NCBI GenBank assembly: GCA_964415355.1
Contig: CAYPYS010000003.1
Span: forward strand, 4,156 to 68,155
Direction of reading: 5' to 3'
Source: an uncultured Planctomycetia bacterium
Lineage (GTDB): Bacteria > Omnitrophota > Gorgyraeia > Gorgyraeales > Gorgyraeaceae
Length of the DNA stretch: 64,000 nt
The translations under genes were made by a program, and so were the position numbers. Shown here in pieces: positions 1,853 to 56,938 of the stretch. Numbering within the stretch: the stretch's first letter is position 1; the number at the start of each line of letters is the position of its first letter. The notes under the pieces are model-generated. The model saw only the letters and a program-made list of their open reading frames with translations, had not been told where the DNA came from and ran no database searches.

Positions 1853-3641
1853 CCAAGACCACCTTTATCATACCACGCACTGAATTCATCATAAAGACCT
1901 CATCAGCGCTCAGGACATCCTCTCTGCGCAATACCTTTTCTTTTACAGGAATTCCTCCGGATTCGAGAAGATGCCTGCGAAATACCCCATTCAAAAGCCC
2001 GCAATGCACAGGAGGCGTGTAATAAATACTGCCTTTTTTAATCAAGATATTGGATATGGCTCCTTCCGTAACCTCTCCTTTTTTATTTGTAAAAATAATA
2101 TCAAAATATCCTTTCCTCCTCCACTTCTTATGCTCCTCATCATATAGATCTCTATTTGTGGTCTTGTGATATAAAAAGACGTTGTTATTTTGTATCTTTT
2201 TTTCAGAAAATCTGGCCCTTGTTATTTCTGCGCGGCCGTTTATCTTTGCAAAACTCGGCTGCATCCTTCCACTGCCGTCAAAAAGAAGTCTCACCCTATA
2301 ATCGAAACCTCTGTCGAACCTCTTTTCCAAGTCCCCCAGCTCTTCCAGAATACCTTTTTTGTCATATCGGACGCTAAAGTATTCTGCCGACGACAAAAGC
2401 CTGTCCAGATGTGTGTTTAAAAGAAAATACCCTTTTCCGGAACGCCACAACATCGTCTCTATAAATTTAAAATCGTTTTTTTTCTTTATTATAAAATCCG
2501 CTTTTAGTTTACACTCATCAAACTCTTTATGCGGGTCTGAATCATATACTATACCGCTGCCGATTCCTATTTCTCCTGCATTGTTCTTTCTGTCTATCAG
2601 GACCGTCCTTATCGCTACGTTAAAAACACTGTCGCCATCCGGTGCAAAAAAACCAATGCCACCCGTATATACACGCCTGGGTTCTTTCTCGAGACAATTT
2701 ATGATCTTCATGGTGCTTATCTTTGGCGCACCCGTAACAGAACCCGACGGAAAAATCGCTTTTAATAGGCTATAAATACTAACGCGTTTTTTAAGGATCG
2801 CTTTGACAATGGATATCATCTGGAATAAGGTCTCGTATCTTTCTACTTCAAAAAGTTTTTTGGTAGATACTGTGCCTGGCTTTGAGATCCTTCCAAGGTC
2901 ATTCCTCAATAGATCGACTATCATCAGGTTCTCGCTTCTATTTTTAAGGCTATGACCAAGCTCTTCGATATGCTCCCTGTCTTCACCAAGATCCTTTCCT
3001 CTGTCAATGGTACCCTTCATAGGCTTTACTTCAATGCGGTCTTTATGCTTCCTGAAAAATAACTCAGGCGAGAGCGAGGCTATTGAAAATCTATCGGTAC
3101 TTATAAAACTTGAGTAAGAAACGCTTTGTTTTTTCTTAAGCTCTTCGTAAAGGCTGTGCGCAGAACCCTTAAAATCAAATTTATATTTAAAGGTGTAATT
3201 TACCTGGTAGGTCTCTCCTCTCCGTATAAAATCCTTTATCTTTTCTATGTCGCTGATATATTTTTTCTTGGATATATTCGGCCTGAGGTTTTTTATAGAG
3301 TAAGGAGAATCTTTATGTCGCAGTAAAGTCATTTTTTCTTTATGCTCGATTATTTCCGGCTTTTTGTATATGCCGAACCATAACAATGGGAAGCCGGGAT
3401 CTGCTCTAAGCTCCTTTAAGTTCTCCTCAAAGCTAAACCCTGCCTCATAAGAAATAAATCCTGCGGCGTAATAGCCTTTCAGTATATAATCCTCGATCTC
3501 ACAAAGAGTGTTTTTTACGTCGGAAAGCTTATCACAAGAAATAATCTTGGCGGGGTTCGAAAAAAGAAAGGACCTGTGGTTATCTTTATCGAATCTATTG
3601 GTCTCAAGGAGGACAAAATTCTTTTTAGGCAAGGTGGGCAT
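1839..3641 (-). CDS. pabB: Aminodeoxychorismate synthase component I fused to an aminotransferase class IV (ADC lyase-like) domain
   Basis: The N-terminal two-thirds carries chorismate-binding-enzyme motifs (SPELFFR, GTIDRG, LMIVDLLRNDLGRI, GSVTGAPK). The C-terminal ~250 aa resembles the class IV aminotransferase / PabC fold (YHKTTNR...). Confidence 0.7.
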   Translation of the reverse strand: MPTLPKKNFVLLETNRFDKDNHRSFLFSNPAKIISCDKLSDVKNTLCEIEDYILKGYYAAGFISYEAGFSFEENLKELRADPGFPLLWFGIYKKPEIIEHKEKMTLLRHKDSPYSIKNLRPNISKKKYISDIEKIKDFIRRGETYQVNYTFKYKFDFKGSAHSLYEELKKKQSVSYSSFISTDRFSIASLSPELFFRKHKDRIEVKPMKGTIDRGKDLGEDREHIEELGHSLKNRSENLMIVDLLRNDLGRISKPGTVSTKKLFEVERYETLFQMISIVKAILKKRVSIYSLLKAIFPSGSVTGAPKISTMKIINCLEKEPRRVYTGGIGFFAPDGDSVFNVAIRTVLIDRKNNAGEIGIGSGIVYDSDPHKEFDECKLKADFIIKKKNDFKFIETMLWRSGKGYFLLNTHLDRLLSSAEYFSVRYDKKGILEELGDLEKRFDRGFDYRVRLLFDGSGRMQPSFAKINGRAEITRARFSEKKIQNNNVFLYHKTTNRDLYDEEHKKWRRKGYFDIIFTNKKGEVTEGAISNILIKKGSIYYTPPVHCGLLNGVFRRHLLESGGIPVKEKVLRREDVLSADEVFMMNSVRGMIKVVLDEKS

Positions 3642-3648
3642 TGAAAAC

Positions 3649-3722
3649 TGGCTGGAGGAGATGGATTCGAACCATCACAACAGGTTCCAGAGACCTGCGT
3701 CCTACCATTAGACGATCCTCCA
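3649..3722 (-). tRNA. tRNA-Gln (anticodon CUG), U1:A72, discriminator G, CCA encoded
   Basis: Hand-folded: TGGAGGA-TC-GTCT..GGAC, anticodon stem CAGGT/ACCTG with loop CTCTGGA, variable TTGT, T-arm GATGG-TTCGAAT-CCATC, acceptor TCCTCCA, G, CCA. Confidence 0.75.
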
Positions 3723-3740
3723 TTGGTCTTTTTAAAGCTT

Positions 3741-3775
3741 AACTTTACATTTCAACAACGTTAAAGTGTAAAGTT
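3741..3775. repeat. 35-bp palindromic intergenic repeat, copy 2 (form A)
   Basis: Exact match to the consensus aactttacatttcaacaacgttaaagtgtaaagtt. Confidence 0.95.
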
Positions 3776-3779
3776 AAGT

Positions 3780-4121
3780 CTATTGCATCTCGTTTTCGAT
3801 GTACATTTTCAGGCGTTTTTGGTCGCGCGGCTCAATATAGGTAAACGCAACACCTGCTTCAAAGGACTTTGCGTGTTCCGCGCCTACTCTTTTTATCCAG
3901 ACGACTTCGCCTCTTCCGAAGATAGGCATCGTATCAGAAGGAAAATATATCTGCACCTCGAGGATCGTGCCTTTTACAAGCCTTTCGTAGACATTAAAGC
4001 TCACGCCGCCTTCGCTTATATCCTTGCCGACTATCTGGTCACCTGTATGCGGCTCTTCCAGAGTCTTGTAACGAATTATTATAGGCCAAGCGATCCTTAC
4101 AAATTTTCTCTTCTCTTCCAT
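3780..4121 (-). CDS. PilZ domain protein (putative c-di-GMP receptor)
   Basis: Carries the RxxxR motif (RKFVR) and the D-x-S-x-G-G motif (DISEGG) diagnostic of PilZ. Confidence 0.6.
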   Translation of the reverse strand: MEEKRKFVRIAWPIIIRYKTLEEPHTGDQIVGKDISEGGVSFNVYERLVKGTILEVQIYFPSDTMPIFGRGEVVWIKRVGAEHAKSFEAGVAFTYIEPRDQKRLKMYIENEMQ

Positions 4122-7923: not shown

Positions 7924-7958
7924 AACTTTACACTTTAACGTTGTTGAAATGTAAAGTT
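7924..7958. repeat. 35-bp palindromic intergenic repeat, copy 3 (form B = reverse complement of form A)
   Basis: aactttacactttaacgttgttgaaatgtaaagtt. The dxs stop codon lies inside it. Confidence 0.95.
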
Positions 7959-9847
7959 ACGGTTTGTTTTATCTTCTGAGGAGAAAGGCCGTATCTGTCT
8001 AATAAAATATCCCTGTCACCGTGCTCGATAAACTTATCAGGAAGCCCGAGCATCTTAACTCTGGTTTCCTTAGGGATTTTATCGATTATCTCTTCTAAGA
8101 CGTATGCCCCGAATCCTCCCTTAAGTGCACCCTCTTCTATTGTAATCAATTTTTTAGTCTTTGATACGGATTTTAATATTAAATCCAGATCCAAAGGTTT
8201 AATGAACCTCGCGTTTATGACTTCGCAGTCTATGCCTTCAGTCAAAAGAGACGAGGCTACGTCCATTGAAACATGAGACATATAACCTATGCTTACTATA
8301 GTAACATCTTTGCCCTCTTTTAGCACCTCTGATTTTCCTAAAATAATAGGCGTTTTTGTCACGGCTGAAGGAAAATTATAACTTTTACCTCGAGGATATC
8401 TTATGGCAATAGGGCCTTCATTATAAGAAATTGCGAATCTAAGCATGTCTTTTAATTCTGCTTCATCCTTTGGCGCCAGCACCACTATGCCGGGCAGGCT
8501 TATTAGATATGCGATGTCAAACGCGCCGTGATGAGTAGGCCCGTCTTCACCCACGAGGCCAGCCCTGTCAAGCATGAATACTATATTAAGATCCTGTAAA
8601 CACGCGTCGTGTGCTATCTGGTCATAGGCGCGCTGCAGAAAGGTAGAATAAATCGCCACGACCGGTTTCAGGCCTGCCCTCGCTAGACCTGCCGCAAAGC
8701 CCACTGCGTGCTGCTCTGCCATGCCAACATCAAAGAATCTATCCGGAAAGATCTTCGCAAATCTATCGAGGCCCGTGCCTTCTGGCATTGCAGCTGTTAT
8801 GGCAATGACCCTTTTATCTGTCTTTGCGATTTCGATAATCTCTTCGCCGAATACGCTTGTGAAACTAATTTCTGGAGACACAGTCGATGTAACCTGTCCT
8901 TTTTCTTTTTTGGCACATACCTTTTCTCCGGTCGACACGTCAAATGAACTCACGCCGTGGAATTTTTCAGGTATCTTTTCGGCATACTCATAGCCTTTGC
9001 CTTTCTTGGTAACTACATGCAAAAGTACAGGCGCATCCATGTCTACGATGTTTTTCAAAGTGCCGACCAGGGTCTTTATATCATGACCGTCGACAGGCCC
9101 GAAATACCTGAATCCCATTTCCTCAAAAAGCATGCCCGGCACCAGAAGATTCTTAAGTCCTTCTTCCAGGCGCCTAGCGGATCTTATGACCCTGAACCCA
9201 AAACGCGGGACTCGTTTCAGAAGGCCCTCTATGTCGCTTCTTATTTTATTGTAAACCGGCGCGGTCATGATGCTGTTTAGATATCTACTCAGCGCGCCAA
9301 CGCTTTTTGAGATGCTCATCTCGTTGTCGTTGAGAATAACCAATATCTTTTTTCGCAAGTGGCCTCCGTGATTGAGCGCCTCGAAAGCCATGCCCCCTCC
9401 CAATGAAGCATCCCCTATAACCGCGACCACCTTATATGCCTTTTCTTCTAAATCGCGCGCCGCTACCATGCCCAGCGCAGTAGAAATAGAGGTCGAACCA
9501 TGCCCTGTCGTAAAAACATCATATTCGCTTTCATTTTTATTCGGAAAACCACTTATGCCGTCGAGTTTACGCAAGGTATTGAATCTATCTTTCCTGCCGG
9601 TTAACAGTTTATGCGCATATGCCTGGTGGCCGACGTCCCAGATAATCTTATCCTCGGGCGCGTTCAAGCAATAGTGAATCGCTACTATCAGCTCAACCGC
9701 TCCCAGGCTGGACGCCAGATGCCCGCCGGAACAAGACACTGTATCAATGATAGCGCATCTTATTTCATGCGCCAAAAGCGTAAGCTCATCAATGCTGAAT
9801 TTTTTTAAATCCGACAGCCTGGTTATCCTATCTAATAATATACCCAT
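7928..9847 (-). CDS. dxs: 1-deoxy-D-xylulose-5-phosphate synthase
   Basis: TPP-enzyme motifs (GHLASSLGAVEL, GDGxxxxG...N) and a transketolase-like C-terminal domain are present. The last residues (...LHFNNVKV) are translated from the repeat. Confidence 0.9.
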   Translation of the reverse strand: MGILLDRITRLSDLKKFSIDELTLLAHEIRCAIIDTVSCSGGHLASSLGAVELIVAIHYCLNAPEDKIIWDVGHQAYAHKLLTGRKDRFNTLRKLDGISGFPNKNESEYDVFTTGHGSTSISTALGMVAARDLEEKAYKVVAVIGDASLGGGMAFEALNHGGHLRKKILVILNDNEMSISKSVGALSRYLNSIMTAPVYNKIRSDIEGLLKRVPRFGFRVIRSARRLEEGLKNLLVPGMLFEEMGFRYFGPVDGHDIKTLVGTLKNIVDMDAPVLLHVVTKKGKGYEYAEKIPEKFHGVSSFDVSTGEKVCAKKEKGQVTSTVSPEISFTSVFGEEIIEIAKTDKRVIAITAAMPEGTGLDRFAKIFPDRFFDVGMAEQHAVGFAAGLARAGLKPVVAIYSTFLQRAYDQIAHDACLQDLNIVFMLDRAGLVGEDGPTHHGAFDIAYLISLPGIVVLAPKDEAELKDMLRFAISYNEGPIAIRYPRGKSYNFPSAVTKTPIILGKSEVLKEGKDVTIVSIGYMSHVSMDVASSLLTEGIDCEVINARFIKPLDLDLILKSVSKTKKLITIEEGALKGGFGAYVLEEIIDKIPKETRVKMLGLPDKFIEHGDRDILLDRYGLSPQKIKQTVTLHFNNVKV

Positions 9848-9857
9848 ATCCTAAATA

Positions 9858-10670
9858 TCAAGATCTCCTGTTTAAAATAAGGTCTGCTATATCTGAAAGT
9901 ATTTTTGCCTTTTTACCGAATATGTCCAGATGGGCCTTGGCGCGCTCGGTCAAAAGCCTCGCCATCTTTCTTACGTGTTCATCTCCATAAACCCTGACAT
10001 ATCCGTCATTATCTATTAGATCATCCACGAGTTGAAATGTAAAGCCGATGCATTTTCCGAACTCAGAAAGCGCTTTTATCTTTTTTTTATTCGCACCTTT
10101 GAATATGCCGCCGGCCTTTACAGAAGCTTCTATAAGCGAGCCTGTCTTATGGCTGGTTATATAGTCTAGTTCGGATTTTGTCGTTTGTCGTTTGCCGTTC
10201 GCATTTTCTATATCCACGACCTGTCCGCCCACTGTCCCATAAGTCCCTATCGCCTTTGAGATACCTTCTATCGTTTCCAAGCAACCTGCTTCTGCGAGCA
10301 ATTGAAACCCCAGGGTCATAAGCGCATCACCTGTTAATATCGCAATGGCTTCGTTAAATTTTTTATGGCAACTCGGTTTCCCGCGCCTCGAATCGTCATT
10401 GTCCACCGCCGGCAGATCATCATGGACCAAAGTATAGGTATGTATAAGTTCTATCGCGCATGCGACAGGCATAATAGCTTTTGCTTTTCCGCCGCACGCC
10501 TCAAAAGAGGCGATCGTCAATACAGGTCTTATTCTCTTGCCGCCCGGAAACACAGAATACCTCATGGCTTTATGAAGCACCTGCGGTTTTACCTTTACAG
10601 ACGGAAGATATTTATCCAGCGCCTTGTCGATTAATTTCTTCTTCTTCGCAATATACCCTTTGATCTCCAT
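9858..10670 (-). CDS. ispA: Short-chain (E)-polyprenyl diphosphate synthase (FPP/GGPP synthase)
   Basis: FARM motif LVHDDLPAVDNDDSRRG and SARM motif FQLVDDLID. Position is the conserved xseB-ispA-dxs arrangement. Confidence 0.85.
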   Translation of the reverse strand: MEIKGYIAKKKKLIDKALDKYLPSVKVKPQVLHKAMRYSVFPGGKRIRPVLTIASFEACGGKAKAIMPVACAIELIHTYTLVHDDLPAVDNDDSRRGKPSCHKKFNEAIAILTGDALMTLGFQLLAEAGCLETIEGISKAIGTYGTVGGQVVDIENANGKRQTTKSELDYITSHKTGSLIEASVKAGGIFKGANKKKIKALSEFGKCIGFTFQLVDDLIDNDGYVRVYGDEHVRKMARLLTERAKAHLDIFGKKAKILSDIADLILNRRS

Positions 10671-25069: not shown

Positions 25070-25104
25070 AACTTTACACTTTAACGTTGTTGAAATGTAA
25101 ACTT
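25070..25104. repeat. 35-bp palindromic intergenic repeat, copy 11 (form B, 1 substitution)
   Basis: ...gaaatgtaaactt. Confidence 0.95.
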
Positions 25105-27397
25105 AGTGTCTGTTAATGGCCTTGTCTCCTATGTCGCTCCTGTATTGCATGCCTTCGAAATCGATTTTCTTTACTGCGTTGTATGCATTTTTTTTAGCGG
25201 ATTTGATGTCATCCCCCATGGCCGTCACGCCCAATACCCTACCGCCACTTGTAAATATTTTTCCATCTTCAAGGATGGTGCCTGCATGAAACACCTCGGC
25301 GTCTTTTAATTTCTTAGCTTCTCCCAGTCCTCGTATTTCTTTATGCTTTTCGTAAAAGCCGGGATATCCTTTAGACGCACAGACAATGCACAAACACGGC
25401 CTGTCATCCCATTTAAGATCCGCTTTATCGAGATTACCGTCTATGCACGCTGTTATCGCATCCACCAGGTCTGATTTTAATCTAGGCAAAATAGCCTGGG
25501 TTTCAGGATCTCCGAATCTTACGTTAAACTCTAAGACCATCGGACCCTTTTTAGTGATCATAATGCCGCCGTATAATACGCCTCTATAGAATTTACCTTC
25601 TTTTGAAAATCCGTAAATAATGGGCCTAAAAACCTTCTCGATGATCTCATCGAATATTTTTCCTGACACGACAGGCGCCGGTGAATAAGCACCCATGCCG
25701 CCCGTATTGCCCGAAACCACTACTCTATTATTTCTCCTTATTACTACGAATCCTGTTGATACTGTAACACATCCTATATTCCCTTTGTAATCAACTAATT
25801 CTATATTGTATTTTCTAATAGATGTCTTATTCTTTTTTTTCATCTCTATTGAATAAACAGGCCTTGCTTTATATTTCTTTTTGTTCAAAGGATTAATCAT
25901 TGTTTTTCTTTTATCGACAGTTATTATTCCAGAACAGCCTAGCTTAACTATCATCTCTTGTATATCGTCGATTAACCTTCGAGAACCACTACAGAATCTC
26001 ATCTTACCCCGATGTATATCTCCATCTCCGAAATTAAAAGCTTTGAGAAATTCTAATAATACTTCTTTTCTTGACTGTTTTATATAATTTGGGATGTATT
26101 TTGAATAAGAAATCCCAAATCTTGATAAATATATAGCCAATTGTGTCGAGTTTATTCTAAATTTATGACTCTTCTCTTCATAAATAAATCTAAAAGGGAG
26201 CTTACTAATAATCTTTTTAATATTATTAAAATTTTTTGATTTTCTCATCTGCGAGATATAAACCCTTTTAGAGCCTTCACCTTTTGTAACATAGCCCTCT
26301 GATAAATAAATAGCGAGAAATTTAGCCCAATTGATAAAATTAATTTTTAATTTCTTAAATTTACGATTAAACTTATAATCATATTCTGGCAAAATAAAAT
26401 ATCTAGGATTTCTCCCTGTCCACGAGCCTGACTGATAGATATAATTTTCTCCCTTGTAATCCCTTGCTTCTACTACATACAATCTCTCTTTTCCTCTCCT
26501 TTGCTGAACTAACATTCTATGATTAGGCGTTACAGTTAAATCTATATTTCTATTTCTGAAATTGATCATATTACCTTTATATCTCATCCAATATTTTTTT
26601 AACGGCTTTTCAAAGAAAATTTTTCTAGAATACGGATCGAATACTGCCACTTCAACTTCTCTCTCTAATTTATTAAACCGCTTCCATCCATTATTGGTTA
26701 ATATTTCAGTATCTTCAGAATAACAATTAGGTCCCTTGTCGCCATCAAAAATCCTCTTGTGGTCCTGCGAAGACACAAGAGGCACTATGTTTCTTCCGTC
26801 GCTAAAAACCAATATAGACGCCTCTTCTCCGTCAAGACACTCCTCTATAATAATCCTCTCCCCTGAAGAGCCAAAGATCTTCTTGACCAGCATAGAGTCT
26901 ATTGCCTCTTCTGCCTCTTCAATGGTTTTTGCCACTATAACGCCCTTGCCAGCTGCAAGCCCATCCGCCTTCACGACTACAGGCGCGCATTTTTCTTTTA
27001 AATATTTTTTTGCATCCTTGGCATCGCTGAAGACCCTGAAATCTGCCGTAGGCACGTTAAACCTCTTCATGGTCTCTTTTGCAAAAATCTTACTCCCCTC
27101 AAGCATTGCAAGTTCTTTAGAAGGTCCAAATACCTTCAGGCCTTCTCTTGAAAATATATCTACTACGCCCTTCACCAGCGGCACCTCAGGCCCTACTAAA
27201 GTCAGGTCAACTTTATTCTGTTTTGCAAAATTCAAGAGGCCATCGATATCGTCTGCTTTTATCGGGACTACCTCTGCGATTTGTTTCATGCCGCCATTTC
27301 CAGGCGCGCAGAATATTTTATCGACCTTCCTGCTCTGCGCAATTTTCCAGACCAGGGCATGCTCTCTGCCGCCCGAGCCGATTACTAAAACTTTCAT
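25103..27397 (-). CDS. purD: Phosphoribosylamine--glycine ligase interrupted by an in-frame intein (764 aa precursor; ~424 aa after splicing)
   Basis: The N-extein ends ...KRIFDGDKGPN and the C-extein starts TGGMGAYSPAPVV, which together restore the conserved PurD motif GPNTGGMGAY. The 340 aa in between are intein-like. Confidence 0.85.
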   Translation of the reverse strand: MKVLVIGSGGREHALVWKIAQSRKVDKIFCAPGNGGMKQIAEVVPIKADDIDGLLNFAKQNKVDLTLVGPEVPLVKGVVDIFSREGLKVFGPSKELAMLEGSKIFAKETMKRFNVPTADFRVFSDAKDAKKYLKEKCAPVVVKADGLAAGKGVIVAKTIEEAEEAIDSMLVKKIFGSSGERIIIEECLDGEEASILVFSDGRNIVPLVSSQDHKRIFDGDKGPNCYSEDTEILTNNGWKRFNKLEREVEVAVFDPYSRKIFFEKPLKKYWMRYKGNMINFRNRNIDLTVTPNHRMLVQQRRGKERLYVVEARDYKGENYIYQSGSWTGRNPRYFILPEYDYKFNRKFKKLKINFINWAKFLAIYLSEGYVTKGEGSKRVYISQMRKSKNFNNIKKIISKLPFRFIYEEKSHKFRINSTQLAIYLSRFGISYSKYIPNYIKQSRKEVLLEFLKAFNFGDGDIHRGKMRFCSGSRRLIDDIQEMIVKLGCSGIITVDKRKTMINPLNKKKYKARPVYSIEMKKKNKTSIRKYNIELVDYKGNIGCVTVSTGFVVIRRNNRVVVSGNTGGMGAYSPAPVVSGKIFDEIIEKVFRPIIYGFSKEGKFYRGVLYGGIMITKKGPMVLEFNVRFGDPETQAILPRLKSDLVDAITACIDGNLDKADLKWDDRPCLCIVCASKGYPGFYEKHKEIRGLGEAKKLKDAEVFHAGTILEDGKIFTSGGRVLGVTAMGDDIKSAKKNAYNAVKKIDFEGMQYRSDIGDKAINRH
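25706..26725 (-). mobile_element. Intein with LAGLIDADG-type homing endonuclease domain inserted in purD (precursor aa 225–564)
   Basis: N-terminal splicing block CYSEDTEIL (Cys1), block B TPNHRML (TxxH), two LAGLIDADG-like blocks (LAIYLSEGYV, FLKAFNFGDGDI), C-terminal ...VVVSGN followed by Thr+1. The intein DNA is visibly more AT-rich than the flanking purD. Confidence 0.75.
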
Positions 27398-40523: not shown

Positions 40524-41582
40524 TCATATATTAATATTTTTGTAAGATATATCCAGCTTTGCAGGCAGGATATATCTCGCGCGAAAATCAGGATTATTCA
40601 TAAGGCACCCTTTGTATCCCGAATTAAAAATAGGGTGTGCCCACATAGACTCTAATATTTTATTCAGGGGTCTAGTGCGCATATCCCCGAAACTTACAGG
40701 CACAAAAGGACAAGGCTGCACCTCTCCATAACAGGAGACATAAAAAAAATCTTTTTTTAAGGCTGCGCAAAACCTCTCATCATTTTTACAAAAAGCTTCG
40801 CTGGATTCCAGATACACGAAACCAGGATCAGCGAGCTTCCTGACCTCATTCTCTTCTTCACTGGTCAGTCTCTCTTCTTCTCTGTCCACCCATCTGCCGG
40901 CCAATGTCGCAAATATAACCCGCACAGAGTTGACCTTTAATCTCCTGCCGATATCTATGATCTTCTTCAGCCGTCCACTCTTTATCTTATCTCTATGGGC
41001 GTTCATAAATATGCTGCAGGAAAGGCCTTCCTTAACGCAGGCCTTTATGCCATCAATGGCATTTTCAAAACATCCCTCTGCCTTTGATACTAAATCATGG
41101 CTCTCTCTATCAGGGCCTTCGATCCTCACAAAAATATGATTCAGCCCGGACTTTTTTAATTTCAAAACTACATCCCTGGAAAGATCTACTCCATTAGTTT
41201 CCATTTCAGTAAATAAACCTCTACTGACAGCATAGTCGATCAGCTCATATATATCTTTTCTGAGAAGAGGTTCCCCTCCTATAAAAGAAACAGCAGTGCA
41301 CATGGACGGGTATTCCGCGATCTCGTCCAGTATCTTTTTGACCTCAAAAGAGGAAAGTTCTTTTTCAGGATGCCTGTCATAACTCCCGCACCAGCAATAG
41401 TCACACTTACAATGGCACTCATATGTGAGATTGACCATTGCCTTTAAAACGCCTCCCCTTATGCTCTTGAGAGGATGAACGCAAAGCGTCCTGATCGAAC
41501 GCGCCAGCTGGCAGGACAATCGATTGCTGAATTTTTCCCTGAATTTCAATCTATAATTCTTTAACCTGGCTATGAAATCCAC
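40524..41582 (-). CDS. Radical SAM protein (~350 aa) with SPASM-like C-terminal Cys motifs
   Basis: YECHCKCDYCWC; C-terminal CKNDERFC...VSCYGEVQPCPFVP...GC. Paralog of 45858–46925. Confidence 0.7.
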   Translation of the reverse strand: MDFIARLKNYRLKFREKFSNRLSCQLARSIRTLCVHPLKSIRGGVLKAMVNLTYECHCKCDYCWCGSYDRHPEKELSSFEVKKILDEIAEYPSMCTAVSFIGGEPLLRKDIYELIDYAVSRGLFTEMETNGVDLSRDVVLKLKKSGLNHIFVRIEGPDRESHDLVSKAEGCFENAIDGIKACVKEGLSCSIFMNAHRDKIKSGRLKKIIDIGRRLKVNSVRVIFATLAGRWVDREEERLTSEEENEVRKLADPGFVYLESSEAFCKNDERFCAALKKDFFYVSCYGEVQPCPFVPVSFGDMRTRPLNKILESMWAHPIFNSGYKGCLMNNPDFRARYILPAKLDISYKNINI

Positions 41583-41599: not shown

Positions 41600-43009
41600 C
41601 TAAAAAATAGTCTTAAAAAAATTAACCACCCTGCCTGTTAATTCATTGATCTCGGAATATCCAAAAATTTCTCTAAGGAGATACGCCGGTCTTAAATAAA
41701 AATCACGGTAACATCTTTTGCGATATTTTATCAACGTATCCATGTCCAGTCCGTATGTTGTATGCGCCAACTTTTTGGGAGAAGAATATTTGTGATAGTG
41801 CCGGTATTCCACGTCCTTTTTGATCTCTCCTCTGGCCAATGCCGTTTTATATAATTTTGATCCGGGGAATGGCTGTGTAATAAAAAACACAGCTCTGTCC
41901 AGAGGTAATTTTTTTGCAAATTTTAAAGTATCTCTAATGCTCTTATCATTATCACCCGGCAGGCCTATCATGAAAAACGCCACTGTCTTTATGCCTGCCT
42001 TCCTGGTCTCGTGAATAGTTTTCTCAATGCATTCTAACTTTATGCCTTTATTTATATTGTCCAGGACCCTCTGATTGCCGGATTCGACGCCATACCCTAT
42101 CTGCCAGCAACCTGATGCCTTCATGGCCTTGAGCGTCTCCGGCGTTACCCGATCGACCCTGCCCATACATGACCAGTCAATCTTTAAGTTCCTGGATATA
42201 AGCTTACGGCATAATTCCATAACCCTTTCCGGACTAAAAGTAAACAGATCATCTACGATACTTACTTCACTGACACCGTACTTATCAACCAGTACCTGTA
42301 TTTCATCCAATATATGTCCTGCACTGCGCGTCCTGAATTGATTGCCGAAAACTGCCTGGTCGCAGAAAACACATTTATACGGGCAGCCGCGGCTAGTGAT
42401 AATGATTGCGTTCGGCAGAGACTTGTAATAGCAATATCTGTATTTATCAACCGGTGGCAACAGGTGCCGTGCAGGAAGAGGTATTGTATCCAGGTCCTCT
42501 ATGTACGGCCTCTTCGTAGTACGGACAGGTTTTTTGCCATTATTGAAGATTATGCCTTTTATATCAGGGATCTTGTCTTTTCTGCGCGCGGAGATGGCAT
42601 CTGCAAGTTCTACTATAGTGCGCTCTCCTTCTCCGAGAACACCGTAATCAAAGCACCCTGTTTCCATTGTCTCTTCAGGAAGTGCGCTAACATGGGGCCC
42701 TCCTATGACTACGGTATAGTCGCCAAGTGATTTTATCTTTTCCGCCAATAATCTTGTTATGCAGAAATCAGGCGTGGAAGAGCCAAGGCCAACAATGCCT
42801 GGATTAAATCCTGAAACATGCTCCAGGATACTGTCTATAGAGAACCTCTCTGCCTTGGCATCTATTATCTTCACATCATAACCTGCGTTTTCTAATGCCG
42901 CGGCTATATAGGCCAGGCCAAGGGGCTGCGACCTGTCATAGACATGCCCAAAGCTCCTGACGCCGGATTCCAAATCACTCGGAGGATGGATCAAAAGTAT
43001 CTTCAGCAA
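41600..43009 (-). CDS. Cobalamin-binding (class B) radical SAM enzyme, paralog A
   Basis: N-terminal B12-binding Rossmann domain (LGLAYIAAALENAGYDVKIIDA...VVIGGPHVSALPEE) plus ITSRGCPYKCVFCDQ. Confidence 0.8.
   Translation of the reverse strand: MLKILLIHPPSDLESGVRSFGHVYDRSQPLGLAYIAAALENAGYDVKIIDAKAERFSIDSILEHVSGFNPGIVGLGSSTPDFCITRLLAEKIKSLGDYTVVIGGPHVSALPEETMETGCFDYGVLGEGERTIVELADAISARRKDKIPDIKGIIFNNGKKPVRTTKRPYIEDLDTIPLPARHLLPPVDKYRYCYYKSLPNAIIITSRGCPYKCVFCDQAVFGNQFRTRSAGHILDEIQVLVDKYGVSEVSIVDDLFTFSPERVMELCRKLISRNLKIDWSCMGRVDRVTPETLKAMKASGCWQIGYGVESGNQRVLDNINKGIKLECIEKTIHETRKAGIKTVAFFMIGLPGDNDKSIRDTLKFAKKLPLDRAVFFITQPFPGSKLYKTALARGEIKKDVEYRHYHKYSSPKKLAHTTYGLDMDTLIKYRKRCYRDFYLRPAYLLREIFGYSEINELTGRVVNFFKTIF
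42467..42928. repeat. 462-nt segment 100% identical to 43873–44334 (B12-domain-coding part of adjacent paralogs)
   Basis: Verified line by line; the copies are offset by exactly 1406 nt. Confidence 0.95.
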
Positions 43010-44421
43010 AACATTGCCCTCAAAATATTCGACATCCTTAGAAACAGGACTTTAAATCCGCGATATCTGATAATCTGTTTCAAAAGATACAGTGGCCGCA
43101 TATAAAATTCGCGGTAAAATTTATTTCTGTATCTTACCAGTGTCTCTGCGGTAAGATCCTTTGCCACATAAGCAAAGCGGTTATGGGCAGCCATGTTGTG
43201 ATAATAACGGTATTCTATGTCTTTAAATATCTCTTTTCTGGCAACGGCATTTTTGTATAGCTCTGATCCGGGAAAAGGCTGAGTGATGCGAAAACCGAGC
43301 TTATCCAGGCCGAGCCTTTTTACAAAACTCAAACTGTCCCTGATATTTTGTTCATTGTCTCCCGGCAATCCTATCATGAGAAAGGCCGCTGCCTCAATGC
43401 CTGCCGTTCTGGTCTGGAAAATAGTCTCTTTGATGCCAGACAGGTTGATATTTTTATTTATCCTGTCCAATGTATCCTGACTACCGGACTCGATCCCGTA
43501 TATGATCTGCCAGCATCCTGCTGACTTCATGGCCTTGAGCGTTTCCGGGGTTACGTGATCTGTCCTGCTCAAGCATGACCAAACCACGTTCATCTTTCTG
43601 GATATTAGCTCGCGGCAAAACTTCAGGATCCTTTCGCGGTCTACGGTAAAAAGATCATCTACGATATCTATGCCTTTTACACCATGTCTTTTTACCAGCA
43701 TCTCTATCTCATCTACTATATTAGGAACGCTCCGCCTTCTGAGATGGTTGCCAAAGACTGCCTGGTCGCAGAAAACACATTTATACGGGCAGCCGCGTGT
43801 GGTTATTATTGTAGCTGTAGGCAAATATCTATACCAGCTGTAACTATATCTCCTTATATCAGGCAGTAATCTCCGTGCAGGAAGAGGTATTGTATCCAGG
43901 TCCTCTATGTACGGCCTCTTCGTAGTACGGACAGGTTTTTTGCCATTATTGAAGATTATGCCTTTTATATCAGGGATCTTGTCTTTTCTGCGCGCGGAGA
44001 TGGCATCTGCAAGTTCTACTATAGTGCGCTCTCCTTCTCCGAGAACACCGTAATCAAAGCACCCTGTTTCCATTGTCTCTTCAGGAAGTGCGCTAACATG
44101 GGGCCCTCCTATGACTACGGTATAGTCGCCAAGTGATTTTATCTTTTCCGCCAATAATCTTGTTATGCAGAAATCAGGCGTGGAAGAGCCAAGGCCAACA
44201 ATGCCTGGATTAAATCCTGAAACATGCTCCAGGATACTGTCTATAGAGAACCTCTCTGCCTTGGCATCTATTATCTTCACATCATAACCTGCGTTTTCTA
44301 ATGCCGCGGCTATATAGGCCAGGCCAAGGGGCTGATATATATCAATGACGGGATTTAGCCTCCCTCCCATGCCTAAATAATCGACCGGCGGATAAACTAA
44401 AAGTATTTTATTTTTTTTCAT
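43003..44421 (-). CDS. Cobalamin-binding (class B) radical SAM enzyme, paralog B
   Basis: N-terminal ~190 aa are identical to paralog A; TTRGCPYKCVFCDQ; the C-terminal half diverges. Confidence 0.8.
   Translation of the reverse strand: MKKNKILLVYPPVDYLGMGGRLNPVIDIYQPLGLAYIAAALENAGYDVKIIDAKAERFSIDSILEHVSGFNPGIVGLGSSTPDFCITRLLAEKIKSLGDYTVVIGGPHVSALPEETMETGCFDYGVLGEGERTIVELADAISARRKDKIPDIKGIIFNNGKKPVRTTKRPYIEDLDTIPLPARRLLPDIRRYSYSWYRYLPTATIITTRGCPYKCVFCDQAVFGNHLRRRSVPNIVDEIEMLVKRHGVKGIDIVDDLFTVDRERILKFCRELISRKMNVVWSCLSRTDHVTPETLKAMKSAGCWQIIYGIESGSQDTLDRINKNINLSGIKETIFQTRTAGIEAAAFLMIGLPGDNEQNIRDSLSFVKRLGLDKLGFRITQPFPGSELYKNAVARKEIFKDIEYRYYHNMAAHNRFAYVAKDLTAETLVRYRNKFYREFYMRPLYLLKQIIRYRGFKVLFLRMSNILRAMFC
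43873..44334. repeat. Second copy of the 462-nt perfect direct repeat
   Basis: Identical to 42467–42928. Confidence 0.95.
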
Positions 44422-44422
44422 T

Positions 44423-45850
44423 TTAAAAAATTGATTTCATAAAAGCCCTGATTCGCCTCGGAAAAGCCCGAAATTCTCTATAACTAAAAATCTGGTTGAT
44501 AACAAACGACGGCCGCATATAAAATTCGCGGTAAAACCTATTCCTGCATTTCACCAGGGTCTCTGCGGTAAGGCCGCGCGGGACATAGGGCAACTCTTTA
44601 TGAAAATTATCATTGTCGTAATAATGATATCCTACGTCTTTCCTGATCTCTCCTCTAGCAAGGGCTGTCTTGTATAACTCTGATCCTGGAAAAGGCTGCG
44701 TGATGCAAAACGCTACTCTATCCAGTGAAAGCCTCTTGGAAAAATCAATGGTCTCGCGCATGCTTTTTTCATCATCACCTGGCAGCCCCACTAGAAAAAA
44801 GCCCTGCGTCCTTATCTTCACCCTTTTAGTCCAGCTAACAGCCTTCTCTGCAACCTCCAACGTGATATCTTTCTTGATCGAGTCCAGGATCTTTTGATTG
44901 CCTGACTCAATCCCATAATTTATGTGCCAGCAACCAGCTTTTTTCATGATCCTAAGCATCTCCGGCGTAACACAATTAACCCTTCCCATGCAGAGCCATG
45001 CTATCTTTAATCTCCTAGACATCAACTTACTACAAAATTCCATGACCCTTTCGCGGTTTACAGTAAACAAATCATCCACTATCTCTATCTCGCGAACGCC
45101 GTAATCTTTCACTAGCATCTCTACTTCGTCCAATATATTCCCTATGCTTCTCATCCTTACCTTGCTGCCGAATACAGAGCGATCGCAAAACGTACATTGA
45201 TAAGGACAACCACGACTGGTAATAATAGGGGCTTTTGGTAAATATTTATAAAACTTATACTCGTATCTGCTTATATCCGACAATAATCTCCACGCCGGAA
45301 ATGGTATGGTATCCAAGTCTTTTATATATGGACGGCGCGGTGTCTTCACAATTCGAGAACCTTCTCTGAAAACCACACCCATGATATTACATGTTCCTGC
45401 TTCTTTACCATCGCATATTGCATCGACGAGCTCTAATATTGTATCCTCTCCCTCATCAATAAGGCCGTAATCAAAGCATCCTGTTTCCATTGTCTCTTCA
45501 GGAAGTGCGCTTACATGGGGCCCTCCTATGACTACGGTATAGTCGCCAAGTGATTTTATGGCCTTTGCCAGGGACTTCGTTATAAAGAAATCAGGGGTAG
45601 AGGAGCTTATGCCTATAATGCGGGGATTAAATCCTGAGACCTTTTTTAAAATATCATCTATAGAAAGCCTTTCCAACTTGGCATCTATTATCTCAACCTC
45701 GTATCCGGCTCTATCCAGCACTGCGGCTATATAAGCAAGGCCCAGAGGAGGATTCATGCAATAGAAATGCCCGGTCTTCCCGTTTTCTAAAAACGTGATA
45801 GGCGGATAGATTAAAAGGATTTTTTCTTTTTTATGATTTTCTAAAGGCAT
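44423..45850 (-). CDS. Cobalamin-binding (class B) radical SAM enzyme, paralog C
   Basis: Same architecture; ITSRGCPYQCTFCDR. Shares an ~80-nt patch with paralogs A/B at 45481–45560 (1 mismatch). Confidence 0.8.
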   Translation of the reverse strand: MPLENHKKEKILLIYPPITFLENGKTGHFYCMNPPLGLAYIAAVLDRAGYEVEIIDAKLERLSIDDILKKVSGFNPRIIGISSSTPDFFITKSLAKAIKSLGDYTVVIGGPHVSALPEETMETGCFDYGLIDEGEDTILELVDAICDGKEAGTCNIMGVVFREGSRIVKTPRRPYIKDLDTIPFPAWRLLSDISRYEYKFYKYLPKAPIITSRGCPYQCTFCDRSVFGSKVRMRSIGNILDEVEMLVKDYGVREIEIVDDLFTVNRERVMEFCSKLMSRRLKIAWLCMGRVNCVTPEMLRIMKKAGCWHINYGIESGNQKILDSIKKDITLEVAEKAVSWTKRVKIRTQGFFLVGLPGDDEKSMRETIDFSKRLSLDRVAFCITQPFPGSELYKTALARGEIRKDVGYHYYDNDNFHKELPYVPRGLTAETLVKCRNRFYREFYMRPSFVINQIFSYREFRAFPRRIRAFMKSIF

Positions 45851-45857
45851 ATTAAAA

Positions 45858-46925
45858 TCAACCGCGTTCTATATCTTCAGCAAATAAAATGTCTGGCCCG
45901 GCATGCCTGACATATTTATCATGAAATCTTCTATTATTCATCAGACATCCCCTATAATTCTCATTACCAAAGATGGATTTCTTCCACATGTTGTCTAATA
46001 TTTCATTCAGCCCCTTTTCTCTGATATTTCCGAAATTAATGGGCACAAAAGGACACGGTTGTACCTCTCCATAACATGAAACATAAAACATTTTCTTATC
46101 CTTAGACGGGCATATCCTGTCCATTTCCCTGGCGCATACATAGCTGGATTCGAGATATACAAAATCCGGGGTCAAGAATTCCTTTACTGCGTTCTCTTCG
46201 GTCTCTGTTAAGACCTCATGTTCATTTTTTATCCATCTGCCGGCGCATGTAGGATAAAGAATTCTTACAGAACTTACCCTTAATTCTTTTCCTAATTTTA
46301 TTATTTCTTTGATCTGGCCATTATATATTTTTTCCTTGGTAGCTATAGTTGAAATACTGCACGATAATCCTTCTTCTACGCAATGTCCTATCCCATACAC
46401 GGCATGGCTGAAACATCCTTTAAAATCCGATATCCTGTCATGAGACTCAGGTTCGGTATTTTCTATTCTCAGGAAGACATGGTGCAGGCCGGCCTTTTTA
46501 AGTCTTTTTACATTATCTAAAGAAAGAAGGATCCCGTTTGTCTCTATCTCTGCGAACAATCCTCTTCTATTTGTGTATTTGACCAGCTCAAAGATGTCGT
46601 TCCTCATCAAGGCCTCTCCGCCGAAAAAAGTAACCACAATGCCCGAAAAAGGTAACCGGCCAATATCATCGAGCAATCTCTTGACTTCCGAAGTGCTGAT
46701 TTCTTTTTCTTTATTTTTTATATATAATCCTGAACAACAATATTCGCAGTTACACTGACATTCGTAAGTCAACCCTATTATTACCTTTAAAAAGCCATTT
46801 CTTATACCTTGATAGGGTGATCTTATCAAAAGACCGCCCCATCTCAATAACTGGGCAGAATATGAGTTGCTGAATTTTTCTCTGAATCTAAGCCTGTGAT
46901 TTTTTAATTTGCTTATTATATTCAT
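45858..46925 (-). CDS. Radical SAM protein (~355 aa) with SPASM-like C-terminus, paralog of 40524–41582
   Basis: YECQCNCEYCCSG; C-terminal CAREMDRICPS...VSCYGEVQPCPFVP...GC. Confidence 0.7.
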   Translation of the reverse strand: MNIISKLKNHRLRFREKFSNSYSAQLLRWGGLLIRSPYQGIRNGFLKVIIGLTYECQCNCEYCCSGLYIKNKEKEISTSEVKRLLDDIGRLPFSGIVVTFFGGEALMRNDIFELVKYTNRRGLFAEIETNGILLSLDNVKRLKKAGLHHVFLRIENTEPESHDRISDFKGCFSHAVYGIGHCVEEGLSCSISTIATKEKIYNGQIKEIIKLGKELRVSSVRILYPTCAGRWIKNEHEVLTETEENAVKEFLTPDFVYLESSYVCAREMDRICPSKDKKMFYVSCYGEVQPCPFVPINFGNIREKGLNEILDNMWKKSIFGNENYRGCLMNNRRFHDKYVRHAGPDILFAEDIERG

Positions 46926-54096: not shown

Positions 54097-55464
54097 TTAT
54101 CGATCGACATCGTCGTCGTAAATATGCCTGATACAGGCAGAAGCCATCCCCTTATCATCTAACAGATCAGAATATAATGTGCACCTCTTTACTATATCGA
54201 GATCAATATTATATTTATTATGAAATACCCCTACCATAATACTCAATATATTTACCGGCTTAAAGACCTCTTTTAATGAACGTCTCTTCCATAACATATT
54301 AAATATATCGGCGATGATCTTTTTATAAAATTTCCATAATTGTATATTAAATATTAATTCCCTCATCAGAAAAAAGTAAGGCAGGGTAAACGTCAGGCGT
54401 AACCAATTTTTTGCCTTACCTTTGTCTTTAAGCGAGCTTATTATAAGCTTTAAATGCCTGTTTATCCTTTCAAGATCGACTATCTTATTTAATGGCTTTA
54501 TATCCCCTTCGTTAAACTTAAAGACATAACACCTCAGGGCACAGCCAGGTTGCCTGGTCCACATTTTACCGATCAATTTTCTCTGGACTTCGAATAAAAG
54601 CAGGGCAAATTCGGTGCAGACTATAAAATCATCGACACTTAGAGATGTCTGGCTTTCCAGTTCTTCCAGTATCCTCGAATTGGATATGCGGCCAAACTCG
54701 GAATACCTGCCAAGCTGCCATATAGGCGTGAAATTGAGGATCTTTACGCTTCTTATATTCTCTAAACTAAATCTGACCAATCTACCTATCTGATCCGTAT
54801 TTACATTGTCCACTATCACGCTGAATAAAAATATCCATATCCCTGCCTTGTTTAAATTGTCCACGGCCTTCTTTTTTATACCTGTCAATCTATCTCCCCT
54901 CATCGCTTCTTGATCATCATCGTCCAGGCTGTCAAATTGTAAATCCACCAAGTCCAGGCCGGCGGCTTTTAACTTCCTCACGTAATCCATGTTCTTTAAT
55001 TTCTTTCCATTCGTCATCAGACAGACCTTGAATCCTTTCTTTTTCAGCCTGCTGATTATCTCGAACAGATCCTCCCTTAAAGTCGGTTCTCCTCCGGACA
55101 AAAGAATATACTCTCCGTGATAATCCTTAACTCTATCTAAAATCTCCTCTATCGAAGGGTCTTTTCTTCTCGCCTTCTCTTCATTAACGCGCATATAACA
55201 GATCGGGCATTTCTGATTGCACTTAAAGGTTATGTATAATATCAAATCGCGAGGATAAAAATCGCATGCGCCTTCTATATGGCTGAATATCCTGTTCATG
55301 CCGGCATAGACCTTATGGGTGTCGAAAACATGCCTGACTTCAAACATGCCGTGTCTTTTGCAGGTCTTGTTTAAATAAAGAATACCTTGTTTTTCGATCA
55401 CCCTGGCATCGATGATTTCAAGGCATTCCGGACACATGCTTTTTGTGCAATCAATGATATTCAT
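54097..55464 (-). CDS. Radical SAM enzyme with N-terminal CxxC zinc-ribbon (paralog 3 of 3)
   Basis: SMCPECLEI...KTCKRHGMF; CNQKCPICY; SGGEPTL. Start taken at MNIIDCTK. Confidence 0.7.
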   Translation of the reverse strand: MNIIDCTKSMCPECLEIIDARVIEKQGILYLNKTCKRHGMFEVRHVFDTHKVYAGMNRIFSHIEGACDFYPRDLILYITFKCNQKCPICYMRVNEEKARRKDPSIEEILDRVKDYHGEYILLSGGEPTLREDLFEIISRLKKKGFKVCLMTNGKKLKNMDYVRKLKAAGLDLVDLQFDSLDDDDQEAMRGDRLTGIKKKAVDNLNKAGIWIFLFSVIVDNVNTDQIGRLVRFSLENIRSVKILNFTPIWQLGRYSEFGRISNSRILEELESQTSLSVDDFIVCTEFALLLFEVQRKLIGKMWTRQPGCALRCYVFKFNEGDIKPLNKIVDLERINRHLKLIISSLKDKGKAKNWLRLTFTLPYFFLMRELIFNIQLWKFYKKIIADIFNMLWKRRSLKEVFKPVNILSIMVGVFHNKYNIDLDIVKRCTLYSDLLDDKGMASACIRHIYDDDVDR

Positions 55465-55465
55465 T

Positions 55466-56938
55466 TTATCCCCTGTCATACCGTTTATCAGCATCAATGA
55501 TATATTTATAGATAGTCCTGCCCTGGAGATCACGATACATATAATAAATTTTCTGGTACCATAAATCATCCTTGGTCATAAAAATAATACTATTAATTAC
55601 GTCTGTGAAAAATCTTAGGCCTTTGTACTTCAAGCCGCGCTTTAAAAATACACATAACATCCTAAATCTTATGCCCCACATAATTCTATTTAATCGCCTT
55701 TTATTCAATGCCTTCGGCTTCACAGCAAGCCTGTTCCATGATCTTTTTATTTCTTCATCTTCTATTTTAGGATTAACCTTTCTCGCTCTCTCCCCCAGTT
55801 CGGTCTTGGGAAGCGGGTAATAAAAATTAAAATACGCCATAAAAGGGTCCATTTCCTTGATAAGATTTAAACTATTCTTAATGCTCTTATTTGTCTCTTC
55901 CGGGCATCCTATTAAAAAATTCATCTTGTACTCTATCCCATTATCCCTAAGTATCGTCGCAGCATCACATATCTGTTTCCTGTTTATATTCTTTTTATAG
56001 ACACTATTTCTTATGTAATCATCACCTGACTCTATGCCAAGCGAGACCAGAAAGCACCCTGCCCTCCTGGTTTGCCTTGCCCATTCATCTGTAACAATAT
56101 CGCATCGTGTCTGACATCCCCATGGCAGCCTCTTGTTCAATCCTTCCTTTATGTATAAATCAGAAAATTCCTTCAAAAATCTCTTGTCCAACCCAAAGAT
56201 ATCATCGCACACGTAAAGAGCCTTGAGTCCTTTATCGGCATACTTATCTATATTAATTTTTATCTCCTTAATCACATTCTCAGCGCTACGGGTCCTATAA
56301 TACCTACCCTCCGCGATATTTCTAAGGGCATGACACGAACAATAACTGCAGTCATAAGGGCAGCCTCTAGAGGCAAGGACATATAGGCTCCCGGTAACTA
56401 ATACACTAGACTCCAGGTATAAATCAACATCCCAGCGATCCCAATTAGGAAATGGTATATCGTCCAGGTCTTCATTAAAAGGCCTGGGCGCATTCCTTGT
56501 TATGTTCCCCTTCCTGTCTTTGTGCCATATGCCGGGCACCATTGGTTCCTGCCCTTTTTCCAGCGCGTTAAGATATTCCAAAAAAGACCTTTCGCCCTCT
56601 CCTATACATATTGCATCAACCAAGGGATGCTGTATGGTCTCCTCTGGGACCAATGTAGGGTGAACACCTCCTAATATCAATGGCGTATCCGGATAAATCT
56701 CTTTTATAAACCTGGCCATGAAAAGGGCGTTTTGAAACGTGAAGCTCGTGACTGAAAAACCTACTATATCAGGCTTATCTTTGAGGTTTTCCCTTAAAAT
56801 CTTTAAGTAATCCTTTGAATTAAATATAAGATCTACGAGCTTCACGTCATGCCTGTGCTCGATAGAGGATACAAGATATGCGAGGCCTATATTAGGAACT
56901 TTATCCTGTAGATTACAGTTAATCAATGTTACTTTCAT
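55466..56938 (-). CDS. Cobalamin-binding (class B) radical SAM enzyme, paralog E
   Basis: NIGLAYLVSSIEHRHDVKLVD...LILGGVHPTLVPE; ASRGCPYDCSYCSCH. Paralog of D. Confidence 0.8.
   Translation of the reverse strand: MKVTLINCNLQDKVPNIGLAYLVSSIEHRHDVKLVDLIFNSKDYLKILRENLKDKPDIVGFSVTSFTFQNALFMARFIKEIYPDTPLILGGVHPTLVPEETIQHPLVDAICIGEGERSFLEYLNALEKGQEPMVPGIWHKDRKGNITRNAPRPFNEDLDDIPFPNWDRWDVDLYLESSVLVTGSLYVLASRGCPYDCSYCSCHALRNIAEGRYYRTRSAENVIKEIKINIDKYADKGLKALYVCDDIFGLDKRFLKEFSDLYIKEGLNKRLPWGCQTRCDIVTDEWARQTRRAGCFLVSLGIESGDDYIRNSVYKKNINRKQICDAATILRDNGIEYKMNFLIGCPEETNKSIKNSLNLIKEMDPFMAYFNFYYPLPKTELGERARKVNPKIEDEEIKRSWNRLAVKPKALNKRRLNRIMWGIRFRMLCVFLKRGLKYKGLRFFTDVINSIIFMTKDDLWYQKIYYMYRDLQGRTIYKYIIDADKRYDRG

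Follow-up and report, generated by a model that had tools for sequence, protein, structure and literature searches.

Two adjacent genes for putative class-B-type radical SAM proteins share an internal segment of 462 nucleotides (nt) that is identical to the last letter, whilst the remainder of both genes has diverged to synonymous saturation. Judged from the sequence pattern, this mosaic most likely reflects gene conversion between old tandem paralogs and not a recent duplication, and we put the probability of this reading at roughly 0.88. The genes, here called A and B, lie beside a third paralog, C, on the minus strand of a 64,000-nt stretch of DNA (GenBank assembly GCA_964415355.1, contig CAYPYS010000003.1, positions 4,156 to 68,155) from an uncultured bacterium of the Omnitrophota lineage; we refer to the whole of this stretch as the window.

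Results and discussion

Gene order on the minus strand is C, then B, then A, all three co-oriented: C comes first (44423-45850; 475 amino acids, aa), followed by B (43003-44421; 472 aa) and lastly A (41600-43009; 469 aa, with a TTG start), which overlaps the end of B by 7 nt. The three were taken from the list of open reading frames (ORFs) together with Pfam matches, and the C protein is 57-59% identical to A and B. A preliminary description of this DNA had reported a 462-nt direct repeat within A and B, and both its position and its offset are borne out: the A copy of the tract (42467-42928, codons 28-181) and the B copy (43873-44334, codons 30-183) match exactly, 1406 nt apart on the minus strand, and the match stops at both ends, with identity in the same register falling to ~50-65% per 50-nt bin in the flanks. 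Alignment at the codon level, which that description had proposed, places both boundaries in frame, the tract comprising 154 whole codons. The run holds 140 matching variable sites, a number reached by none of 10,000 permutations, and by our own arithmetic the chance of a 462-nt exact run at a background identity of 0.65 is 0.65^462, or ~1e-86. The two copies are separated by a unique spacer of 944 nt (42929-43872, minus strand), which takes in the 3' part of B along with codons 1-27 of A. Spacer and one tract copy make up the 1406-nt unit that assemblers either drop or emit as a loop.

Outside the tract, the proportion of differing synonymous sites (pS) between A and B is 0.69, with synonymous (dS) and nonsynonymous (dN) divergences of ~1.85 and 0.34, whereas 0 of the 111 synonymous sites within it differ. 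Sequence-level purifying selection was considered as the cause of this identity and ruled out, as the synonymous sites are identical too, and identity in the tract region is no more than 73.5% between the window genome and a related species, which we call species X (contigs L012, L013 and L014); the sequence itself is therefore under no unusual constraint. Species X has orthologs of A, B and C, and the closest homologs of the trio are annotated as Candidatus Omnitrophica. In neighbour-joining trees, which are simple distance trees without bootstrap support, aa 301-469 pair window A with P0005, window B with P0003 and window C with P0004 (the P proteins being the species X orthologs), whereas aa 28-181 place window A with window B, and P0003, P0004 and P0005 together. 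Because the tract and C-terminal trees conflict in this manner, the triplication predates the species split, with the N-terminal parts homogenised separately in each lineage.

Could the pair instead stem from a very recent whole-gene tandem duplication, the rest of the gene having diverged fast afterwards? Two adjacent, co-oriented genes of equal length with a perfect repeat invite that view, and the preliminary description had allowed for either a recent tandem duplication or gene conversion. However, the synonymous sites outside the tract are saturated, and, towards the C-terminus, A, B and C are each matched by a different ortholog from another species; a recent duplication is scarcely credible in the face of both, and that half of the earlier proposal is refuted. 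Its other half, gene conversion, gains from the absence of synonymous differences within the tract, from its sharp edges, and from the grouping of the tract by genome and of the 3' parts by ortholog.

Gene C bears what looks to be the trace of a shorter and older event. A patch at 45465-45559 (minus strand), common to A 42642-42736 and B 44048-44142, encodes IKSLGDYTVVIGGPHVSALPEETMETGCFDY and is identical to A at 93 of 95 nt, the longest unbroken match being 47 nt. Since A and B are identical here, a three-sequence permutation in the style of GENECONV is unsuitable, and we used a test of codon choice instead: at identical degenerate residues, the same codon is used in 28 of 30 cases within the patch, against 107 of 239 (45%) elsewhere. 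On account of these shared codon choices, the patch is best read from its sequence as a short conversion remnant, beyond the mere conservation of a GGPHVSALPEE motif. A near-identical patch of ~80 nt at 45481-45560 had been noted earlier; it is real, with the extent amended as above.

Eight assemblies of the locus

Seven further assemblies from the same population, retrieved by exact-protein look-ups, bring the total to eight with the window; the exact A protein is also present in other assemblies, as P0002. Two of the seven (L001 and L002; ENA SAMN10231894 and SAMN10231904) hold the full C-B-A array, each with its own exact 462-nt repeat, and are 99.6-99.9% identical to the window. Five of the eight break or collapse at the repeat. 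A JGI contig of 1525 nt with a 119-nt terminal overlap (L006; 3300009105, Ga0117905_1071756) is the 1406-nt unit emitted as a graph loop at k = 119 (1406 + 119), and its ORF is a chimera, P0001, which runs from the A N-terminus through the tract to the B C-terminus. Two more (L030 and L031; JGI 3300009332 and 3300007511) carry C and then a B/A hybrid that lacks the spacer 42929-43872, and joins the B N-terminus (29/29 residues) by way of the tract to the A C-terminus (241/241 and 107/107 residues, respectively). The last two end inside the B copy of the repeat: L029 (ENA SAMN10231914) at 44280, exactly 55 nt into the tract, which fits a k = 55 break at the repeat edge, and L028 (JGI 3300009374; 140,375 nt) at 44126. 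The hazard of assembly collapse predicted for this locus is directly demonstrated by these loop, hybrid and broken contigs.

With short-read assemblers so prone to mishandling the locus - collapsed, broken and loop contigs all sit in the public data - the repeat itself might be suspected of being an artefact, either of a single existing copy or of a tract pasted by mis-assembly into a diverged paralog. Yet the unique N- and C-terminal flanks of A and B are joined to the tract across independent assemblies (the window, L001, L002, L006, L028, L030 and L031); a true sequence diverged by 65% would present an assembler with no repeat to confuse; and related genomes contain the same mosaic with different boundaries. 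An artefact of this kind is extremely improbable. A single copy duplicated by the assembler, the alternative raised in the preliminary description, is excluded, since several of the independent assemblies contain the unique flanks of both copies.

The hybrids themselves are a separate matter. Two contigs from species X show related configurations: in L012 a gap of Ns (~9860-9960) joins the N-terminus of the C ortholog (C') to the body of the B ortholog (B'), and L013 (NCBI GCA_014384055.1, JACNGO010000018.1) has C' and after it a hybrid (2387-3796) in which a B' N-terminus is joined to an A' C-terminus. Perhaps the B/A hybrids (those in L030 and L031, and the second gene of JACNGO010000018.1) arose in the cell as deletion alleles, through unequal crossing-over at the tract, and circulate in the population as domain-shuffled enzymes. 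The two JGI contigs do run unbroken through the B N-terminus, tract and A C-terminus, and a 462-nt direct repeat is, from general knowledge, an ample substrate for RecA-type recombination. On the other hand, the complementary 1406-nt loop contig occurs in a sister sample, the hybrid contigs are short (3.2-3.7 kb), and full-length arrays were assembled from the same population; real hybrid alleles are, to our mind, rather doubtful. Whatever their origin, hybrid ORFs and a 1406-nt pseudo-circular contig have found their way into the protein sets of JGI and NCBI (P0001; second gene of JACNGO010000018.1), and the locus illustrates in detail how metagenome data are corrupted by a repeat of ~460 nt. 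Those counting paralogs of this family, or building trees of it from metagenome-assembled genomes, should mask the N-terminal 300 residues or turn to long reads.

Are the two copies truly identical?

Compared with the window, L001 and L002 differ essentially only at four synonymous transition sites, and in both copies of the tract: 42644 G>A, 42656 C>T, 42683 T>C and 42839 A>G on the plus strand, with the same sites 1406 nt further on in B. Outside the repeat, L001 has one single-nucleotide polymorphism in ~6.5 kb and L002 none; across all seven assemblies (~32 kb), the differences there amount to that one in L001, and three substitutions with a 23-nt gap in L029. The broken contigs add information on phase. 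In L006, the three clustered sites have the alternative alleles, and the fourth, which adjoins the A flank, has that of the window. For L028, identical copies predict a k = 119 unitig end at 44216, whereas the contig ends at 44126 (44244-119+1), exactly one k-mer beyond site 44245, at which it has G. Because of this endpoint, and because L006 links the A flank to an A, the simplest reading of the sequences puts an A in copy A and a G in copy B at 42839/44245; the three clustered sites may also be copy-specific.

We consider it probable, from this pattern of variants, that the copies differ at 1-4 sites, i.e. are identical at 458-461 of 462 nt (99.1-99.8%), and that the exactness seen in the window is in part an assembler consensus. 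Assemblers that pop bubbles and walk a repeat twice would print one consensus into both copies, and even the 'good' assemblies have probably done so. The earlier wording of 'perfectly identical' copies is accurate for the window and probably overstated for the cell, by the 1-4 synonymous sites to which the other assemblies point. The four transitions have probably accumulated since the conversion event. Even with all four differences counted, the pS of the tract is at most 0.036 as opposed to 0.69 outside, and the conversion would therefore still be recent.

There is a lesser, though by no means negligible, possibility that the copies are 100% identical in each cell, and that the four sites represent strain polymorphism among several haplotypes of the population, each fully homogenised by conversion that is very recent or still under way. 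Both copies carry haplotype 1 in the window and haplotype 2 in L001 and L002, with the phase in agreement between the two separate variable regions of each of these full-length, short-read assemblies. But why, in that case, would all four recurrent variable sites fall inside the same 462 nt, with so few and isolated differences in the ~32 kb outside? Moreover, the haplotype of L006 is mixed, and L028 ends k = 119 after the fourth site and not 119 nt into the tract.

Recurrence in related Omnitrophota

Is this mosaic peculiar to one genome? Codon alignments of the window, species X, L008 and L010 were scanned for stretches with a minimum length of 60 nt and a minimum identity of 95%. Every within-genome paralog pair in the four genomes has at least one such tract, and the between-genome pairs have none. 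In species X, tracts cover aa ~29-190 and 198-316 (450-490 and 260-360 nt, respectively); in L008, genes 1 and 3 share one at aa 113-284; and the four genes of L010, whose sequence is backed by a second assembly at 99.93% identity, form a mosaic of 63-179 nt tracts around aa 88-142 and 198-291. For the most part the tracts fall within aa 28-316; beyond aa 316, the scan of the four genomes returned two short tracts only. A comparison with orthologous loci, also suggested in the preliminary description, hence uncovers the same type of mosaic along with the conflict between trees. The claim made there that conversion is restricted to the B12 module holds for the window genome but not for its relatives, whose tracts extend into the radical SAM core as far as aa ~284-316, through the CxxxCxxC region; the conversion-permissive zone in general is the N-terminal two-thirds of the protein, including that region.

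The arrangement SPASM-C-B-A-SPASM (or with four paralogs) is kept in related contigs L010, L012 and L013. A scan of GTDB species representatives with protein B returned only relatives of 22-27% identity and no orthologous locus, and a search for related loci among metagenome contigs only relatives of 24-38% identity, of no use for phasing. An exact 40-mer of the tract gave 0 matches in JGI metagenome contigs, though other JGI contigs do carry the tract.

Protein architecture

All three proteins carry a B12-binding domain (PF02310; E-values of 1e-23 to 1e-24) followed by a Radical_SAM domain (PF04055); in A, these span aa 23-135 and aa 203-365. The tract covers the Pfam B12 domain (aa 23-135 in A, 29-137 in B) and the linker, and stops ~20 residues short of the radical SAM core. 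For B, an AlphaFold2 model drawing on 52 homologs (predicted local distance difference test, pLDDT, 91.6; predicted template-modelling score, pTM, 0.91) has a Rossmann domain at aa 5-142, starting with strand beta1 (aa 5-10) and proceeding through helices and strands up to a helix at aa 130-142; a hairpin (aa 155-165) and a linker lead on to a radical SAM barrel that starts at aa 202, and C-terminal helices take up aa 425-471. The cysteines of the CxxxCxxC motif (C211, C215 and C218) are invariant across the 52 homologs. On this model, the tract extends from just before helix alpha1 to the linker, leaving the barrel and C-terminal helices outside. The earlier description of a homogenised cofactor domain and a diverged catalytic part is essentially right, save that the first 27-29 codons - strand beta1 and the beta1-alpha1 loop - are unconverted.

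This loop (aa 11-29 in B, 9-27 in A and 15-33 in C) lies just outside the tract, has a pLDDT below 70, and is the most divergent N-terminal segment among the three proteins. In canonical B12 domains, the beta1-alpha1 loop bears the lower-axial-ligand motif; by analogy, it may have a paralog-specific influence on cofactor chemistry or on the access of substrate.

The best Foldseek matches of the B model are AprD4, MgmA, TsrM, OxsB, CysS and TokK (E 1e-27 to 1e-19; TMq 0.64-0.75). A comparison of A-C with the class B radical SAM structures TsrM (6wte), TokK (7kdx), OxsB (5ul4), CysS (9n1b) and MgmA (9ccb), and with the B12-domain-bearing AprD4 (6fd2), shows a common plan of an N-terminal Rossmann domain of B12 type, a partial TIM barrel with CxxxCxxC, and C-terminal helices. 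Sequence identity to these structures is only 15-23%, however, and cobalamin use by A-C is predicted from the fold; AprD4, the top structural match, reportedly needs no cobalamin despite its B12-type domain. A-C are also short (~470 aa) and BchE/HpnJ-like, whereas the antibiotic methylases are longer. Over nearly their full length, their best NCBIfam matches are HpnJ (TIGR03471), BchE (TIGR02026) and TIGR04072, the 'lipid biosynthesis B12-binding/radical SAM protein'. The scores fall far below the curated cutoffs (197-227 against 577.6 bits for HpnJ, 208-217 against 481.35 for BchE, and 151-171 against 360 for TIGR04072), which keeps A, B and C out of these equivalog families. From sequence and model together, we describe them as BchE/HpnJ-like, putative class-B-type radical SAM proteins with a predicted B12 domain.

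A possible mechanism

How might such a mosaic arise and persist? A, B and C being old tandem paralogs, we posit that they are transcribed as one operon from the minus strand of an Omnitrophota-like chromosome, and that misaligned copies recombine through non-reciprocal, RecA-type intrachromosomal conversion. In a recent event, ~462 nt would have been copied between A and B, a stretch that starts at helix alpha1 and takes in the rest of the Rossmann B12 domain and the linker, whilst an earlier and shorter event would have involved C at the GGPHVSALPEE motif. The tract edges adjoin the conserved motifs QPLGLAYIAA and DLDTIPLPAR, which could supply the homology for an exchange to start and end. 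Converted N-terminal modules may survive since cofactor binding would be the same job in all copies; conversions that overwrite the paralog-specific beta1-alpha1 loop, or the C-terminal part of the barrel and the C-terminal helices, which presumably serve in substrate recognition, would be removed by selection. A homogenised tract would in turn recombine more readily, leading to a self-sustaining state, and this could be why all four genomes have within-genome tracts of their own. Unequal crossing-over at the repeat could also delete or duplicate the 1406-nt unit.

We could speculate further that the homogenised N-terminal module is kept adaptively, the three or four tandem enzymes of a lipid-type island having to offer an identical B12/linker surface to a shared partner, and that recombination at this module yields real hybrids (B N-terminus with A C-terminus, and the reverse) and copy-number variants that alter the positions at which the substrate is modified. 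The partner could be a cobalamin loader or reductase, or the enzymes could come together as a hetero-oligomer. We hold this adaptive scenario to be improbable.

Several considerations weigh against reading the locus as a converted one, or against parts of the scenario above. Conversion is deduced from the pattern in the sequence only, and either copy may have been the donor. GC content at third codon positions is not raised (0.43 in the tract, 0.47-0.48 outside), giving no sign of GC-biased conversion, a candidate that we rejected on this count. The species X contigs L012 and L013 are themselves collapsed, for which reason their perfectly identical tracts cannot count as independent evidence. 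The case for copy-specific variants pools assemblies from different samples, and several homogenised haplotypes in the population could partly mimic such variants. Finally, the step in which selection shapes the survival of tracts is a speculative one.

Known systems and implications

Concerted evolution by intrachromosomal conversion is known in bacteria from tufA/tufB in Salmonella, from rRNA operons and from multicopy nifH in Rhizobium. The present locus resembles such cases in its sharply bounded tract, in a near-zero synonymous divergence inside old paralogs, in the grouping of copies by genome and not by ortholog, and in direct repeats that allow deletion or duplication. It differs from them in that A and B are homogenised only at an internal module, made up of most of the cofactor domain and the linker, whilst the first 27-29 codons and the 3' 60% stay at ~65% nucleotide identity, and in that the pattern recurs over arrays of three to four genes in several uncultured Omnitrophota. 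Conversion between tandem paralogs is a known process, of which this locus is a solid new example. Our literature search found no report of gene conversion among radical SAM paralogs, and the locus is not described in a preprint on complete Omnitrophota genomes (bioRxiv 10.64898/2026.06.07.730766) or in the Cariaco biosynthetic gene cluster paper; the Mss paper offered nothing on domains that would help here.

Within the largest subgroup of radical SAM proteins, the array is a natural and clear-cut instance of concerted evolution acting on a module. It suggests that the cofactor module is interchangeable among tandem paralogs, with the beta1-alpha1 loop and C-terminal part carrying paralog identity, and points to the probable seat of substrate specificity in the BchE/HpnJ-like clade. 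For enzyme engineering, perhaps the tract edges could serve as natural junctions for chimeras.

The radical SAM island

The trio sits in an island of ~23 kb (window 36700-60855, minus strand) with 16 radical SAM genes in one orientation: 7 of B12 type, 3 Tes-like genes with an HMPTM zinc ribbon, 4 SPASM genes, 1 MiaB-like and 1 core-only gene. The remainder includes 2 GT2 glycosyltransferases, a GNAT-like gene and a UbiA prenyltransferase. The Tes-like genes score below the NF045702 cutoff (217 against 450 bits). Immediately around the trio are two of the SPASM radical SAM genes, both AhbD-like and identified with Pfam, one downstream of A (40524-41582, minus strand; 352 aa), with a best NCBIfam match to AhbD at 132 bits, below the cutoff of 500, and one upstream of C (45858-46925, minus strand; 355 aa). 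These flanking paralogs, at an offset of 5343, show no recent conversion, with only stretches of 58-65 nt at 74-83% identity (repeat families D6, D7 and D9), in contrast to the B12-type radical SAM genes between them.

By analogy, the island resembles clusters for the synthesis and modification of membrane-spanning lipids in archaea and some candidate phyla. In the literature on such lipids of archaea and bacteria, Tes, AhbD-like SPASM proteins (Hbs/Gms) and B12-type radical SAM proteins (GrsA/B, Hgm) are credited with the coupling, bridging, cyclisation and methylation of lipid chains, and homologs are noted in Omnitrophota. Like GrsA and GrsB, the glycerol dialkyl glycerol tetraether (GDGT) ring synthases, and the methylase Hgm (PMC13459092; bioRxiv 10.1101/2023.10.20.563219), A-C could be similar B12-type paralogs that act on one class of substrate at different positions. 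This likeness to Grs and Hgm is drawn only from gene context and the literature, and a lipid-modifying role for A, B and C stands as a lead only. At the other end of the window lie genes for Dxs (7928-9847) and a polyprenyl synthase (9858-10670).

Two further observations concern other genes of the window. The PurD (GAR synthetase) gene at 25103-27397 (minus strand) encodes 764 aa, as compared with a typical ~425 aa; GARS_A is matched in two stretches and LAGLIDADG_3 at aa 445-497, and the insertion is, from its sequence, probably an intein with a homing-endonuclease domain. In the island, the ORFs of a Tes-like gene (54097-55569) and of the B12-type radical SAM gene upstream of it (55466-56938), both on the minus strand, overlap by 104 nt, and the true start of the Tes-like gene is probably a later start codon.

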